In this document: in pieces, positions 55,264 to 64,000 of the stretch | Position numbering within the stretch: position 1 is the stretch's first letter | Layout: every line of letters starts with the position of its first letter | Assembly: GCA_964448395.1 (NCBI GenBank) | Contig: CAYUWM010000001.1 | Location: 21,997-85,996, forward strand | Direction: 5' to 3' | Length of the DNA: 64,000 nucleotides | Origin: an uncultured Dehalococcoidales bacterium | GTDB lineage: Bacteria; Chloroflexota; Dehalococcoidia; E44-bin15 | The notes under the pieces: model-generated | The model's database searches: none | What the model saw: only the letters and a program-made list of their open reading frames with translations | Told to the model about the DNA's origin: nothing | Translations under genes and position numbers: made by a program

Positions 55264-56277
55264 CTAGACCCGCTCCCTCCAGTAGTTGAGCAGATCCCTG
55301 AGGGTCTGCTCGAAAGGAATCTCGTTCTTCCATCCGGTCAGCTCACGGAATTTGGTAGAGTCACAGATTAGGACCTTCACATCCGAGGGGCGGAATCGGG
55401 TGGGATCGGCTTTAACCTCTACGTCAACATCGGTCATGCCGAGCAGCATATCAAGCATTTCCTTCACCTCCAAGGCATGCCCGCTGCCGATATTGTACAC
55501 CTCCCCGGGGATGCCTTTTTCCGTCGCCAGCCAGTAAGCCCTCACGAAATCCCGAACATCTGACCAATCCCGCCTGCTAGAAAGGTCACCGGTGTAAATA
55601 ACCGGCTCTCTATGCCCCTTCTCGATCTCCGCTATCTGCTTGGCGAAACTGGATGTGACAAACACGTCACCCCGGCGCGGCCCTTCATGGTTGAATCCAC
55701 GGGTGACCACGGCCTTCAAACCATAGCTCCTATGATACTGGTATGCGAGCATCTCCTGAGCCACTTTGCTTACACCGTAAGGGCTCAGCGGGCGCAGCGG
55801 GTTTGTCTCTTTAACCGGCAGTTCCTCAGGCAATATATAGCCGTACTCTTCCGAGGAACCCGCGATGTGTATAACCGGATCGATACCGGCACCGCGCACT
55901 GCTTCGAACAAATTGACTTCCCCGATGATATTCGTATGCAGGGTCTCGGCAGGGGCCCACCATGAAGCCGGAACATAGCTCTGGGCGGCAAGGTGAAAGA
56001 TGCGATCCGGCCTCACCACACCCATCACGCGGTGCATGGAGAACGCATCGCCGATATCCGCCTCCATCAGATTGAGCTTCGATGAGTCGCCCTGCGGTGC
56101 GGAACCCGGTTCAGAAGCAATGATGTTTATCCGGCCACTGTTCTTCAGATCATCCAGGTTCTCCATCCTGCTGCGCCAGCGCAAGGTACCGTAAACCTCC
56201 AAACCCCCTTTCGCAAGCAGGTAGTCTGCCAGATGGCTCCCAGCCATCCCGGTAACACCTGTGATCAGTACACGCAT
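55264..56277 (-). CDS. GDP-mannose 4,6-dehydratase-like NDP-sugar dehydratase/epimerase (SDR)
   Basis: ITGVTGMAGSHL Rossmann motif, YGVSK catalytic motif, and FNHEGPRRG-x-FVT typical of Gmd-type enzymes. Confidence 0.75.
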   Translation of the reverse strand: MRVLITGVTGMAGSHLADYLLAKGGLEVYGTLRWRSRMENLDDLKNSGRINIIASEPGSAPQGDSSKLNLMEADIGDAFSMHRVMGVVRPDRIFHLAAQSYVPASWWAPAETLHTNIIGEVNLFEAVRGAGIDPVIHIAGSSEEYGYILPEELPVKETNPLRPLSPYGVSKVAQEMLAYQYHRSYGLKAVVTRGFNHEGPRRGDVFVTSSFAKQIAEIEKGHREPVIYTGDLSSRRDWSDVRDFVRAYWLATEKGIPGEVYNIGSGHALEVKEMLDMLLGMTDVDVEVKADPTRFRPSDVKVLICDSTKFRELTGWKNEIPFEQTLRDLLNYWRERV

Positions 56278-56297
56278 ATTAACCTCCCTAATTTAGA

Positions 56298-57389
56298 TTA
56301 TCGGTCTGCACCAGGCCATACCTCGGTACCCGCAGATAGTTTTTTACCGCTCTCCACCGTTACACCATGCCCCAGAACGCAACCCTCCATGATTTGGCTT
56401 CCATCTCCGATCGTGACGTTCTCTGCGATGACACATTCCTTCAACGACGCCCCGTCGCCGATGCGGGTGCCGTCCCATATTACTGCTCCTTCAACAGAGC
56501 TGTCTATCCCTACAATACAATCCGAACCGATAACGGCGGGGCCTTTCACTCGCGAACCAGAACCTATCTTACAGCCCCTACCGATAACAACGGGGCCCTC
56601 GAGGATAGCTTGGGGATGGATATCCGATACTTGCTCCACCCGTATCCTTTCCCCAGTAAGCTCATCAGCAAAACACCCGCCCGTCTTTCCGGAGAGCAGA
56701 TCGTGATTCACCCGCAGGTACTTCTGCGGTGTGCCGATATCGATCCAGTACCCGTCTGATTTGTATCCACAAACTACATCACCCCGATTTAGAAGTTCGG
56801 GAAACACCCCGTACTCGAACATGAAGTATTCGCCCTGGGGGATTAGGTCCAATACTTCAGGCTCCAGAATATAAAGCCCGGCATTCACCATATTGGTAGT
56901 CACCGCATCCCGGCTCGGTTTCTCGACGAATCGCTGCACCCTGCCCGTCCCGTTCGTTTCAACCAAACCGTAAGCGGTGGGGTCTTCCACCGGGGTCAGA
57001 GCGATACTGACCTTCGCCTTATGATTTCGGTGGAGCTTCAGCATCTCAGTGAGATTGATGTCAGTGAATGTGTCACCGTTGAAAACGAAGAATGTTCCGT
57101 CGATATGCTCCGCGACATTTTTAACCGCACCCGCCGTCCCCAGAGGGGAATCCTCGATAACGTAAGTTAATCTCACATTGAAGCTACCACCATCGCCGAA
57201 GTAGCTCCGGATGGGATCGGACAGATAGCCCATAGCCAGTATGATATCATCTATGCCATGAGCTTTTAGGTAATCGATCATATGGGCTAGGAAGGGTCGA
57301 TTCACGATTGGAACCATAGCCTTGGGTGTACTGAAGGTAAGGGGGCGCAGCCTGGTCCCCTCACCACCGACGAGGATAACCGCCTTCAC
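56298..57389 (-). CDS. sugar-1-phosphate nucleotidyltransferase with a C-terminal left-handed beta-helix
   Basis: MKAVILVGGEGTRLRPLT N-terminus and hexapeptide repeats in the C-terminal third. Confidence 0.85.
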   Translation of the reverse strand: MKAVILVGGEGTRLRPLTFSTPKAMVPIVNRPFLAHMIDYLKAHGIDDIILAMGYLSDPIRSYFGDGGSFNVRLTYVIEDSPLGTAGAVKNVAEHIDGTFFVFNGDTFTDINLTEMLKLHRNHKAKVSIALTPVEDPTAYGLVETNGTGRVQRFVEKPSRDAVTTNMVNAGLYILEPEVLDLIPQGEYFMFEYGVFPELLNRGDVVCGYKSDGYWIDIGTPQKYLRVNHDLLSGKTGGCFADELTGERIRVEQVSDIHPQAILEGPVVIGRGCKIGSGSRVKGPAVIGSDCIVGIDSSVEGAVIWDGTRIGDGASLKECVIAENVTIGDGSQIMEGCVLGHGVTVESGKKLSAGTEVWPGADR

Positions 57390-57442
57390 CTCTAATCCCT
57401 TTCTGGTACATGCATTACGCCAACGCCAGTTTAAGGATCGTA

Positions 57443-58654
57443 TTACTTGAGACCAGCTTCGGCTCGAAGCATGTCCGCCTTGTCAGTCTTTTCCCAGGGA
57501 AGGTCAATATCGGTGCGCCCGAAGTGACCGTAGCTGGCAGTCTGGCGGTAGATGGGCCGTCGCAGGTCCATATCCCGGATAATAGCCCCCGGCCTGAGGT
57601 CGAAGTGCTCATCGATCAGCTCGCTGATAGCCTCATCGGGGACATTATTCGTACCGAATGTCTCGATAGCTATCGACAACGGATGTGCCATCCCGATGGC
57701 GTATGATACCTGTATCTCCACCCGATCCGCCAGACCGGCCGCCACCACGTTCTTGGCCACGTACCGGGCGGCATATGCCGCTGAGCGATCAACCTTGGTG
57801 GGGTCTTTACCTGAAAACGCCCCTCCGCCGTGCCTGGCGATGCCACCGTAGGTATCTACCAGTATCTTGCGACCGGTAAGCCCGGCATCGCCCATCGGCC
57901 CGCCGATGACGAAACGTCCGGTGGCATTAACATAATACTTAGTTTTATCATCGACCAAGGATTCAGGTATCACCGGCCTCACGACGTTCTCAATGATATC
58001 TTTATATATTATATCGTGTCCCACCTTGGGATCATGCTGGGCAGCCATCAGGACAGTATCTATCCGCTTGGGCACGCCCTTGGAGTACTCAACCGTTACC
58101 TGAGACTTGCCATCGGGGCGAAGATACTTGAGGGTGCCATCCTTCCGTACCTCAGCCAGTCGTCGAGATAACTTGTGAGCCAAGGATATGGTCAGCGGCA
58201 TCTTCTCCGGGGTCTCATTGCAGGCGAAGCCCACCATCATCCCCTGGTCCCCCGCTCCCAGCGTAGCTATCTCATCCTCCTTTACCTTCTGCCCCCTGAT
58301 CTCCATGGCACTGCTTACACCCATGTCGATATCCTTTGACTGCTCCTTGACTGACACCATGACGCCACAGGTATCGCAGTCGAATCCGTACTTGGCACGT
58401 GTATAGCCGATATCCCGCAGCACCTCCCGGACGATATCCTGAATTTCGATGTAACAGGATGTAGTGATCTCTCCCATCACGAGAACGAGCCCGGTGGTTG
58501 CAGCGGTCTCACAGGCAACCCTGGCCATCGGGTCCTGCGCTAGAATTGCATCCAAGACAGAATCGGAAATAATGTCGCAGACCTTATCCGGGTGGCCCTC
58601 AGTCACCGACTCGGATGACAGGAATAGTGAGGGGGCGGTCATGAAAGTGGTCAT
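57443..58654 (-). CDS. metK: S-adenosylmethionine synthase
   Basis: [22 protein letters not shown] and [15 protein letters not shown] motifs. Confidence 0.97.
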
Positions 58655-58678
58655 AGGCTCCTCCTTCGTATCATCTTT

Positions 58679-60882
<2,204 letters not shown>

Positions 60883-61018
60883 CCTATATTCTCACTCCGT
60901 CCTATTGCTGATCTATCCACCGCACCACCTGTTCTAATACGCTATCGCGGTTCGATCTCGTCACCACAACAGTGGCAACATCTAGTGATTCACACCCTGA
61001 CTGTACAACCATCCGCCT

Positions 61019-61210
61019 CTAGCTGTGAATCTTGACGAACCGCTCTATAGAACGATCGTAGGTTCTCTCTACCTCCGGAGGGAAGAGACACCCCGGCAGC
61101 TCCCCCAGACTCTGGTGGTACCTTATACACTCGCAGCACTTGCCCTTGCGCGAGCAGGGCTCGTAGGTGCATGGGCACTTCGCCTTGTTGGCCTCTATGT
61201 TGCACTCCAT
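61019..61210 (-). CDS. small cysteine-rich protein (63 aa, 8 Cys, CPC and CCEC motifs)
   Basis: The ATG lies 3 nt after the upstream gene's stop and 7 nt after GAGGG. The cysteine pattern is C3, CPC (12-14), C19, CCEC (25-28), C41. Confidence 0.7.
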
Positions 61211-61213
61211 TTC

Positions 61214-62257
61214 CTAACCCTCTTTGATATACCTGCGCCTGTATTCCTTAGAGACATCCGCCAGAAGCTCGAGCGCCCACTCCGCCGCCTCCTCGGATGC
61301 CGGTTCCAGCCCGCAGGCAGGGGTCAGCAAGCATTGCCGCTTTAGCTTCTCAGGGCTAGCTCCTTTCCTCTCAAGCGCGCTCATTCCCGCCTCCAGGCGG
61401 TCTATTATTCCCTTCACCACCTCACCCTTCAGGTCGCCCTCTTCACGGGGCACTATGCCCCAGGCGATCACACCGCCACGTTCAAGGAACGACTTTACCT
61501 CTTCAGGGTAAAGAGAGATGGTGTAACCATAATTATAGGCATCGAAGTTCAGGATGTCGAGAGGGGTGGCCAGCAGCATCGACCAGTCAGTGTTGCCGCA
61601 GCAGTGCACCCCCTTCAGCCCATTGATTCCGGCAAACACCTCGCTGAGGAGACCTATCACCTGGTCGCGGGAGACGGATACAAACGCCGACCCGACAGAG
61701 GACATGTAAGGCTCATCGACGAATATGATGGTATCCGGCGCTCTGGGGCTCAGTACTGACTCTTGCCACGCCGCTTTCAGGTGTAGATGCTTGGCTATGG
61801 CATCGGCAAGCGTCTCATCATACAGAATGGGGCGCCGATCCTGGTCGGTGACCGTGAGCCCCCAGGTAACCGGTCCGGTCAGCTGTCCCTTTACCGCTCG
61901 GGCGGATCCAAGCTCCATATCTAGGAAGCTGTAGAGCCCGGCGGCGTACTCACTACTGATTGAATATTTCTCGACATCGTTTCCCAGGTAAGCGGTGTAT
62001 AGCTCCTGCAGGGGGCCATCCAGATCCTTGGTACGATCGACATATATGCGCTCCCCCTCGATAGCAATGCCGGGAAAACCCTCGCTGTACTGAGCATACA
62101 TATTCTCCAAAAAAGAGCGCTTTGGTAGCTGGGGCCAGACCGGTATCTCCGGCAGGAACTTAGAGATAATCGAACATGCCCGCTGCGGATCGGTGTGTGG
62201 CATGCTGCCTATCATCGTCGGCAGGCCGCTTAGCTCACATCCGGTTGACTTTATCAC
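61214..62257 (-). CDS. single-domain MetE-like / URO-D_CIMS-superfamily zinc methyltransferase (candidate folate-independent methionine synthase)
   Basis: VHCCGN (H-x-C) and TPACGLEP cysteine motifs in the positions of MetE/MT2 zinc ligands. The GTG at 62257 overlaps the mtnP TAG by 1 nt; the track's longer ORF runs into mtnP. Confidence 0.65.
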   Translation of the reverse strand: MIKSTGCELSGLPTMIGSMPHTDPQRACSIISKFLPEIPVWPQLPKRSFLENMYAQYSEGFPGIAIEGERIYVDRTKDLDGPLQELYTAYLGNDVEKYSISSEYAAGLYSFLDMELGSARAVKGQLTGPVTWGLTVTDQDRRPILYDETLADAIAKHLHLKAAWQESVLSPRAPDTIIFVDEPYMSSVGSAFVSVSRDQVIGLLSEVFAGINGLKGVHCCGNTDWSMLLATPLDILNFDAYNYGYTISLYPEEVKSFLERGGVIAWGIVPREEGDLKGEVVKGIIDRLEAGMSALERKGASPEKLKRQCLLTPACGLEPASEEAAEWALELLADVSKEYRRRYIKEG

Positions 62258-63123
62258 TACTTTACGTACTTCCCAATCAGGAGTGCGAGGTCTTGCTTGG
62301 TCCGCGCCGGTATCTTCTGCGGGTCGGTGAGGATGTTGGATCCGAGTGCGCTGGCGCAGGCGCACCCCCGGCTCTGCGGGATGCGCTCCGCCGCCATCCC
62401 GATAATCCTCTTGGCGGTATCCACATTCTTCTGCAGGTTGGCGACCGCCATCTCTATGTTCACCGATTCCTCGGTCTCATGCCAGGTATCGTAGTCGGTG
62501 ATACAGGCGATGGTCGCGTAGCACATCTCGGCCTCACGTGCCAGCTTGGCCTCGGGCAGGGCGGTCATGCCGATTATACTGGCCCCCCAGGAGCGATACA
62601 GGTTGGATTCCGCCTTGGTGGAGAAGAACGGCCCCTCCATCACTACATATGCGCCGCCCTTATGGACACTAGCCCCCGCGTCGCGAGCGGCCCGGTGAAG
62701 TATATCGCTGAGCACCGGGCAGAACGGCTCGGCGAACGGCAGGTGGGCCACCAGCCCCATGCCGTCGAAAAAGCTGTTCACCCGGCTCTTGGTGCGGTCG
62801 ATAAGCTGGTCGGGTACCACGATATCCAGCGGATGGACGCCCTCCCTGAGGCTGCCCACCGCATTGACCGATATGATCCACTCCACACCCAGCGATTTCA
62901 AGGCATAGATGTTGGCCCGAACCGGCACCTCGGTGGGGGTGAAGCGGTGCCCGCGACCGTGGCGGGGGAGAAAGGCGATGGTCTTGCCGTCGAGGTCACC
63001 GACCACTATGGAATCGCTGGGCTCACCGAACGGCGTTTTAACCTTTACCTCGTCGACGCCTGTCATCCCCTCCATCTCATACAGGCCGCTGCCCCCTATA
63101 ACGCCGATCTTAGATTCAGGCAT
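62257..63123 (-). CDS. mtnP: S-methyl-5'-thioadenosine phosphorylase
   Basis: KIGVIGGSGLY, FL-RHG-GH and PNP-family motifs. The ATG at 63123 follows GAAGGG; the ATG at 63141 is an alternative. Confidence 0.9.
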   Translation of the reverse strand: MPESKIGVIGGSGLYEMEGMTGVDEVKVKTPFGEPSDSIVVGDLDGKTIAFLPRHGRGHRFTPTEVPVRANIYALKSLGVEWIISVNAVGSLREGVHPLDIVVPDQLIDRTKSRVNSFFDGMGLVAHLPFAEPFCPVLSDILHRAARDAGASVHKGGAYVVMEGPFFSTKAESNLYRSWGASIIGMTALPEAKLAREAEMCYATIACITDYDTWHETEESVNIEMAVANLQKNVDTAKRIIGMAAERIPQSRGCACASALGSNILTDPQKIPARTKQDLALLIGKYVK

Positions 63124-63140
63124 GGTTAACCCTTCCCACA

Positions 63141-64000
63141 TCAGTCCTTTCTAAGTGCCAATTTCCGCAGGCTCTCTGTATACGGCTCACGAGCGATTCC
63201 CGCTTCCGTAATTATAGCAGATATGTAGCGGTGGGGGGTAACATCGAAGGCGGGATTGGCCACAGCCACGCCTTCGGGTGCGATGCGAACGCCTTTGATA
63301 TGGGTCACCTCTTCGGCATCCCTCTCCTCGATTGGTATCTCATCCCCGGAGCTTATGGAGAGGTCTAGCGTGCTTGTCGGGGCGGCGACGTAGAAGGGGA
63401 CGCCGTTCTCCATGGCCAGCACGGCGAGATTGTAGGTCCCTATCTTGTTGGCCACATCCCCATTGGCGGCAATCCTGTCGGCACCAACGATCGCGCAGTC
63501 GATTTCTCTCGAGCGCAGAAAATGCCCCACCATAGTATCGGTTATTAACGTGAACGGAATGCCGTACTTCTGCAGCTCCCAGGCGGTAAGGCGCGCCCCT
63601 TGAAGCAGGGGGCGGGTCTCAGTAACGAATACACTGACCTTTTCCCCGCTATCCCACGCCGACCTGATCACCCCCAGAGCCGTGCCGTAGCCCGCTGCCA
63701 AGGCCCCGGTGTTGCAGTGGGTGATGACAGTAAAGCCATCCCGGATCAGCCCTGCGCCGTAACCGCTCATCCTGCGCTCTGCCGCCTCATCCTCAGCGTC
63801 GATCTTGCGCGCCTCTGCGATAAGGGAAGCCTTTATCCGTTCGACGCTGTCACCCGCCTCCGCAACCTCGTTCATGCGGCGCAGCGCCCAGAAGAGGTTC
63901 ACCGCCGTAGGCCTGGTGCCGGCCAGCTCTGCGGAGATAGGTCGAAGTTTGTCGAGGAACTCTTCCTTAGAGCCCGCTTCGACGGCCTGGGCGCCCAGCG
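63141..64000 (-). CDS. mtnA: S-methyl-5-thioribose-1-phosphate isomerase (5' end outside the window)
   Basis: [22 protein letters not shown] and [15 protein letters not shown] motifs. The reading frame stays open to the window edge. Confidence 0.88.

Follow-up and report, generated by a model that had tools for sequence, protein, structure and literature searches.

The present analysis deals with two neighbouring genes in a 64,000-nt stretch of contig CAYUWM010000001.1 of an uncultured Dehalococcoidales bacterium (assembly GCA_964448395.1). This whole stretch is called the window in the following; all coordinates are positions in it and all genes discussed in it lie on its minus strand. Judged by its sequence, the 347-aa product of the first gene (61214..62257) is an ordinary MesB, also named core-MetE, and an orthologue of the characterised, corrinoid-dependent single-barrel methionine synthase of Dehalococcoides mccartyi. 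The second gene (61019..61210) encodes a 63-aa cysteine-rich protein of the DUF6485 family, which we regard as a putatively metal-binding, facultative passenger or accessory of the mesB operon. To this reading as a whole we assign a probability of about 0.8. The assignment of MesB explains methionine synthesis without MetH or MetE in a salt-marsh or sediment organism of the Dehalococcoidia. This role of MesB is already established for the class, and the family and its operon context have been published (PMC7005905, PMC7857596). The wider interest lies in DUF6485, which is strongly conserved in bacterial and archaeal phyla (70-80% identity), apparently binds metal and has no solved structure. 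A DUF6485 gene is the neighbour of mesB in D. mccartyi itself, a point passed over in the key papers on MesB: neither of the two (PMC7005905, PMC7857596) discusses it.

Assignment of the 347-aa protein to MesB

The identification as MesB is based on sequence similarity, on residue mapping and on the predicted fold. By BLASTP, the protein is 52% identical over its full length to MesB of D. mccartyi 195 (DET0516, Q3Z939), with 364 bits. For membership in the family, Price et al. (2021, PMC7857596) used a similarity to DET0516 of at least 173 bits by phmmer; the score obtained here exceeds this threshold well, with the proviso that the programs differ. By exact look-up, the orthologue that a class-wide genome scan detected in one genome, a single contig of 1.52 Mb, falls into the D. 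mccartyi 'methionine synthase' cluster that includes Q3Z939. Dehalococcoidia contain thousands of close homologues, and for several of these the given name is methionine synthase.

For DET0516, positions 214, 216, 235 and 311 (H, C, D and C) were given as zinc ligands and positions 15, 69 and 177 (S, W and D) as homocysteine contacts, position 69 belonging to a region that was called variable (Price et al., PMC7857596). The zinc ligands align to H218, C220, D239 and C315 of the window protein, all of which are invariant in an alignment of 33 homologues. The homocysteine contacts align to S18, Y72 and D181, so that Ser and Asp are kept, whereas Trp69 of the D. mccartyi enzyme corresponds to Tyr72. 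In the initial annotation, which was made from the sequence alone, the motifs VHCCGN (H218-x-C220) and TPACGL (C315) of this protein of about 347 aa had been taken for zinc ligands, and the mapping to DET0516 confirms this.

The general domain databases were less informative. The Pfam scan yielded Meth_synt_2 with 13 bits, which is below the cut-off, and no match to Meth_synt_1; in the NCBIfam scan NF002119 ('methionine synthase') was found with an E value of 1e-8, again below the cut-off. Sequence searches of the PDB with the protein (HMMER) and with the MesB family profile gave nothing useful. An AlphaFold2 model built from 33 homologues reached a pLDDT of 85 and a pTM of 0.87, and in a Foldseek search against the PDB ranks 1 to 27 were all taken by MetE chains or by MesD (3rpd), with E values from 2e-9 to 1e-6. 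The best of these matches, at E values of about 1e-9 and with a TM score of about 0.6 on the query, are the full-length MetE structures of Thermotoga maritima (1T7L/1XDJ) and Candida albicans (4L6H). Normalised on the query, the TM scores of the MetE matches were 0.55-0.62; normalised on the target with its two barrels, they were about 0.30. Because of this difference, the length of 347 aa and the missing Meth_synt_1 match, the protein can be described as one MetE-type barrel without the N-terminal folate-binding barrel, as the initial annotation had stated. With full-length MetE it would have the zinc-thiolate chemistry in common; it differs by having one barrel in place of two, by a sequence similarity so low that HMMER did not pick it up among PDB sequences, and by its donor, which is methyl-folate for MetE and a corrinoid, as predicted, for the window protein.

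This prediction relies on the work on CbdbA481, the purified D. mccartyi orthologue, which methylated homocysteine with methylcobalamin and not with methyltetrahydrofolate (Deobald et al. 2020, PMC7005905); the recombinant enzyme was active alone in vitro with methylcobalamin (PMC7005905). By analogy to this orthologue, the only one for which it was shown, the window protein is expected to take the methyl group from a corrinoid rather than from 5-methyltetrahydrofolate. In the proposed mechanism, a single (beta/alpha)8 barrel of the MetE type would hold Zn2+ on H218, C220, D239 and C315 and thereby activate the thiol of homocysteine, and the thiolate would be methylated by a methyl-Co(III) corrinoid protein and not by methyl-folate. 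Most likely, the donor would be CoFeSP (AcsCD) of the Wood-Ljungdahl pathway, or else another corrinoid protein of the organism. Methionine would then be passed on to MetK, AhcY would regenerate homocysteine, and MtnP and MtnA would recycle methylthioadenosine, all of them encoded in one gene string. The earlier proposal of a homocysteine methyltransferase serving the methyl cycle encoded around it is supported by the orthology, by the fold and by the string mtnA-mtnP-mesB-...-ahcY-metK, and it describes what is already known for MesB.

The DUF6485 miniprotein

Both junctions of mesB are tight and correspond to the earlier description. The GTG start codon (62255-62257) overlaps the TAG stop codon of mtnP (62257-62259) by one base. 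At the other end (61208..61225), direct reading of the sequence reveals a GAGGG Shine-Dalgarno sequence within the end of mesB, the TAG stop (61214-61216), a single GAA codon as spacer and the ATG of the small gene (61208-61210), which is located 7 nt downstream of GAGGG. The open reading frame that starts here, 3 nt after the mesB stop, encodes 63 aa with 8 Cys. Translation of the DUF6485 gene is probably coupled to that of mesB at this locus, and we infer that the two genes are co-transcribed. The TAG and the one codon behind it keep the reading frame, which raised the idea of an in-frame read-through fusion of both proteins. This was dropped: among the family members listed, which have 53-132 aa, none is a fusion.

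The protein passes the gathering cut-off of Pfam PF20095 (DUF6485) with 34.7 bits against 24 bits. When all 1.84 billion representatives were searched, 349 clusters of the family were obtained (E up to 0.001), and the best 150 of these comprise proteins of 53-132 aa without fusions. The window copy is a typical stand-alone member (about 65 aa). More than 1200 homologues were counted for the 63-aa gene and thousands for the 347-aa gene. Because homologues are this abundant and the DUF6485 cut-off is passed, both genes are considered real.

In 34 diverse members of the family C12, C19, C25, C28 and R53 are invariant, and C3, C14, C26, H32 and C41 are conserved to at least 90%. The resulting pattern of the family, which the window copy shares, is C-x8-CxC-x4-C-x5-CCxC-x3-H-x8-C, accompanied by a YDRS motif. 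As these are nine conserved ligands in CxC/CCxC spacing, the most likely role of the eight Cys and the one His is to bind metal, in a polynuclear Zn-thiolate or an Fe-S centre. The AlphaFold2 model is helical and has a pLDDT of 91.5; compared by Foldseek with the PDB it gave no matches, and the PDB search by sequence gave none either. In the searchable literature, DUF6485, DET0515 and cbdbA480 were sought without success, and the product names in use at NCBI are 'DUF6485 family protein' or 'cytosolic protein'. Copies from distant lineages remain very similar to that of the window: those of a Bathyarchaeota genome (L076), a Thermoplasmata genome (L082) and Moorella mulderi (L070) are 74-80% identical to it. 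Such conservation across distant phyla is unusually strong for 63 aa; it implies that the protein is under intense constraint, that it was recently transferred between lineages, or both.

Linkage of DUF6485 and mesB

We scanned 401 genomes of the class Dehalococcoidia with PF20095 and a MesB profile and compared the coordinates of the matches. DUF6485 was detected in 85 genomes, in 43 of which mesB lies elsewhere than DUF6485. A strong MesB orthologue is encoded in 139 genomes; DUF6485 is adjacent to it in 39 of them, and in 57 (41%), complete single-contig genomes among them, it is wholly absent. The 39 genomes with adjacent genes span at least 12 family-level groups, and the matches of the two profile hidden Markov models (HMM) are 27-186 nt apart in them. 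In the family of the window's own genome all 17 DUF6485-bearing genomes show the pairing, and D. mccartyi has the order mtnA-mtnP-mesB-DUF6485, as in the window. These data show a genuine linkage that exceeds chance and is limited to part of a single class.

Genomes of the same family, the same order and the same genus are found in which mtnP-mesB is followed by an NTPase gene, the slot between them being empty and DUF6485 occurring nowhere in the genome. The gap between mesB and the NTPase gene is about 110-420 nt in these relatives, in most of them too small for a DUF6485 gene. Presence and absence are mixed even inside single genera (g2, g224). DUF6485 has been lost repeatedly in Dehalococcoidia without loss of mesB. 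Where it occurs unlinked within the class, its neighbours depend on the lineage and include a P-loop kinase with a dCMP deaminase, MgtC, ABC transporter genes, or peptidyl-tRNA hydrolase. In three loci of Dehalococcoidia (L091, L107, L109) a gene for a 592-aa multi-pass, transporter-like membrane protein is inserted between mesB and DUF6485, and the junction is therefore not fixed even within one string.

The family extends far beyond this class. We retained the 80 best of the 595 loci that a scan of named genomes with a narrow DUF6485 alignment yielded. They are 68-92% identical to the window copy and belong to Dehalococcoidia, Anaerolineae, WOR-3, Atribacterota, Zixibacteria, Moorella mulderi, Clostridia, Deltaproteobacteria, Bathyarchaeota and Thermoplasmata. 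For 35 of these 80 loci a MesB gene lies within 6 kb of DUF6485; the labels of 32 are of Dehalococcoidia type, and the remaining three carry only the label Chloroflexota or Chloroflexi. Beyond the class, 24 genomes with DUF6485 were searched as a whole; 11 of them have a MesB-like gene and 13 have none. Atribacterota, WOR-3, Clostridia and some Anaerolineales have DUF6485 without MesB. Among 14 control genomes, only those of Thermotoga maritima and Methanocaldococcus jannaschii contain the family. A single alternative conserved partner was sought in 100 loci and none was found, the neighbours varying by lineage. In two loci of WOR-3 (L069, L095) DUF6485 is placed between two genes for the glycine-cleavage P-protein (GcvP), and in three of Anaerolineae (L073, L085, L094) between or beside genes for DHDPS::Fae (formaldehyde-activating enzyme) fusions. 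GcvP, Fae and MesB could represent three contexts of one-carbon (C1) metabolism for DUF6485, and they could be a coincidence.

Alternative explanations

For the 347-aa protein, the alternative is a methylcobamide:thiol methyltransferase of the MT2 type, like MtaA/MtbA, which would act on a thiol other than homocysteine. The zinc motif (H-x-C...C), the single barrel of fitting size and the MttB-family and corrinoid protein genes in the genome would suit such an enzyme. However, UroD (uroporphyrinogen decarboxylase), which represents the MT2 fold class, is preceded in the fold search by 27 chains of MetE or MesD and first appears at rank 28, and neither Pfam nor NCBIfam reported a URO-D match, the only family matches being methionine synthases. 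Furthermore, the protein is orthologous to a characterised MesB, keeps the homocysteine-binding Ser and Asp, and is encoded within an operon of the methionine/S-adenosylmethionine (SAM) cycle. Fold ranking, family scans and orthology leave this identity effectively refuted, and we consider it hardly credible; the structural comparison of MetE with MT2 enzymes that the initial annotation had called for sides with MetE.

For DUF6485, one alternative is that in Dehalococcoidia it serves MesB as a dedicated accessory, acting as zinc donor or buffer, as redox protector or as an adaptor between MesB and the methylated corrinoid protein. The precedent is the MesD/MesX system of aerobic bacteria, with the DUF1852 protein MesX of about 330 aa. 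Genetically, MesX is indispensable there, and its gene is found next to mesD in nearly every case (Price et al. 2021, PMC7857596). In the window, too, the gene of a core MetE-type barrel stands beside that of an uncharacterised DUF protein. Several points favour such a role and weigh against our reading of a facultative passenger. Each of the 85 Dehalococcoidia genomes with DUF6485 also has a MesB-like gene, and in 39 of the 85, D. mccartyi included, DUF6485 lies directly 3' of mesB on the same strand; the tight coupling in the window and the nine putative metal ligands would fit as well. In addition, an E. coli metE mutant was not rescued by MesB alone (PMC7005905), which leaves room for missing partners. 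Other parts of our reading are likewise exposed: the metal centre of DUF6485 is putative, CoFeSP as the methyl donor agrees with the published prediction and is deduced from co-occurrence only, and the sequencing runs that hold the locus are all DNA metagenomes (salt marsh, sediment), with no RNA run among them. On the other side, DUF6485 is unlike MesX in being only 63 aa long, in missing from 41% of the class genomes with strong MesB and in being common without MesB. With adjacency in 39 of 139 genomes, absence in 57, empty slots in members of the same genus and 13 of 24 outside genomes without MesB, it does not behave like an obligate partner of the MesD/MesX kind, for which Price et al. 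described genes that are almost always adjacent. These absences, the unrelated neighbours elsewhere and the activity of MesB alone in vitro argue that DUF6485 is not obligatory for MesB. We therefore judge a dedicated accessory to be unlikely, and the same holds for an auxiliary role in vivo in Dehalococcoidia, which would also speak against our reading; the distribution predicts that any effect of DUF6485 on MesB is auxiliary. The earlier suggestion of a metal or redox partner or methyl-donor adaptor is weakened accordingly, and of the co-occurrence with MesB-like genes the linkage within part of the Dehalococcoidia stands while a general association does not.

As a further possibility, strict anaerobes might use DUF6485 as a small Fe-S (redox) protein of general function that has nothing to do with methionine synthesis and was captured by chance at the 3' end of mesB in an ancestor of Dehalococcoidia. 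Its restriction to anaerobic lineages, from Dehalococcoidia, Anaerolineae, Atribacterota and WOR-3 to Moorella, Bathyarchaeota and Thermoplasmata, with the two positive controls following the same trend, its promiscuous neighbourhoods and its very high conservation across phyla are consistent with this idea. However, the canonical CxxCxxC motif of ferredoxins is missing, and nine ligands in CxC/CCxC spacing suit Zn-thiolate clusters at least equally; we are doubtful about this explanation, although it deserves to be kept in mind. A bolder version of the partner idea regards DUF6485 as a Cys8His metal-cluster miniprotein of new fold that would support MesB in vivo in Dehalococcoidia by supplying or protecting its zinc-thiolate site or by corrinoid hand-over, and that would more generally serve C1- or methyl-handling enzymes of anaerobes, as its places between GcvP genes and between aldolase::Fae genes might suggest, its losses being offset by other factors. 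We see this as rather improbable. Our preferred reading of DUF6485 remains that of a compact helical miniprotein that would accompany the mesB operon in particular lineages, as a facultative passenger or accessory, and that MesB would not need as a subunit.

Gene neighbourhood and host genome

The two genes are embedded in a string of genes that would together make up the methyl cycle. Upstream of mesB lie mtnA (63141..63998, its 5' end beyond the window), encoding methylthioribose-1-phosphate isomerase, and mtnP (62257..63141), encoding S-methyl-5'-thioadenosine phosphorylase. The former is assigned by the Pfam domain IF-2B (294 bits) and by its slot, which is that of mtnA in the D. mccartyi operon, and the latter by TIGR01694 (MTAP, 318 bits, above the cut-off) and PNP_UDP_1 (162 bits). 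Downstream of the DUF6485 gene follow a PfkB-family kinase (59929..60882; Pfam PfkB 86.8 bits, no NCBIfam equivalog above the cut-off), ahcY for S-adenosylhomocysteine hydrolase (58679..59932; AdoHcyase 215 bits, AdoHcyase_NAD 187 bits) and metK for S-adenosylmethionine synthetase (57443..58654; three S-AdoMet_synt domains with 146-232 bits). The kinase is possibly the adenosine kinase of the methyl cycle.

The DUF6485 gene is separated from the PfkB-ahcY-metK genes by a non-coding gap of 136 nt (60883-61018). A weak promoter-like site was noted at 61029-61000. In the gap, Rfam detected nothing at E values up to 1, the folding is no better than that of shuffled sequences (z -1.1), and a consensus scan did not find a convincing terminator. 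The Rfam search of the region 56000-64000 returned only a sub-threshold snoRNA match attributable to chance. In many relatives (L104, L078 and many other loci of Dehalococcoidia) DUF6485 is usually followed by an NTPase_1 gene (PF03266) and a gene for a conserved 333-aa protein, which has no Pfam match and corresponds to the N-terminal half of a 531-aa protein encoded downstream in D. mccartyi. Both genes are absent from the operon of the window.

The genome to which the window belongs comprises 1.6 Mb in 93 contigs and is 89% complete. The window contains neither metH nor full-length metE, as the initial annotation had noted, and this extends to the 89%-complete genome, which has no MetE and no homocysteine-binding region of MetH, only isolated B12-binding and pterin-binding pieces. 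Outside the window, a row of acsB, acsD, acsC and an acsE-like gene is present on contig C3 (3158-8809). AcsB is recognised by its CdhC and ACS_CODH_B_C domains, the CoFeSP subunits by two matches to the CdhD family (320 and 136 bits), and the acsE-like gene encodes a pterin-binding methyltransferase. The genome resembles that of D. mccartyi in having CoFeSP and lacking MetH and MetE, and at the locus itself in the neighbours mtnA, mtnP, ahcY and metK, in the zinc ligands H-C-D-C and the Ser/Asp contacts of a single barrel without folate domain, and in the DUF6485 gene (Q3Z940) after mesB. It differs by the AcsE-like pterin methyltransferase, contrary to what is reported for D. mccartyi, and by an additional MesB-like paralogue.

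This second MesB-like gene (contig C6, 23576-24664) encodes 362 aa that are 32% identical to MesB of the window and score 145 bits to Q3Z939, with H-x-C, D and C retained. Two MttB-family genes, a B12-binding corrinoid protein and a pterin-binding methyltransferase are encoded within a few kb of it (C6, 11919-24664). The cluster could link a methyl source of the quaternary-amine or methylamine type to a specialised homocysteine or thiol methyltransferase. On another contig (C59, 2840-3484) a B12-binding domain matches the MetH model with 121 bits and is interrupted by one in-frame TAG, which could stem from a sequencing error, mark a pseudogene or be a recoded codon.

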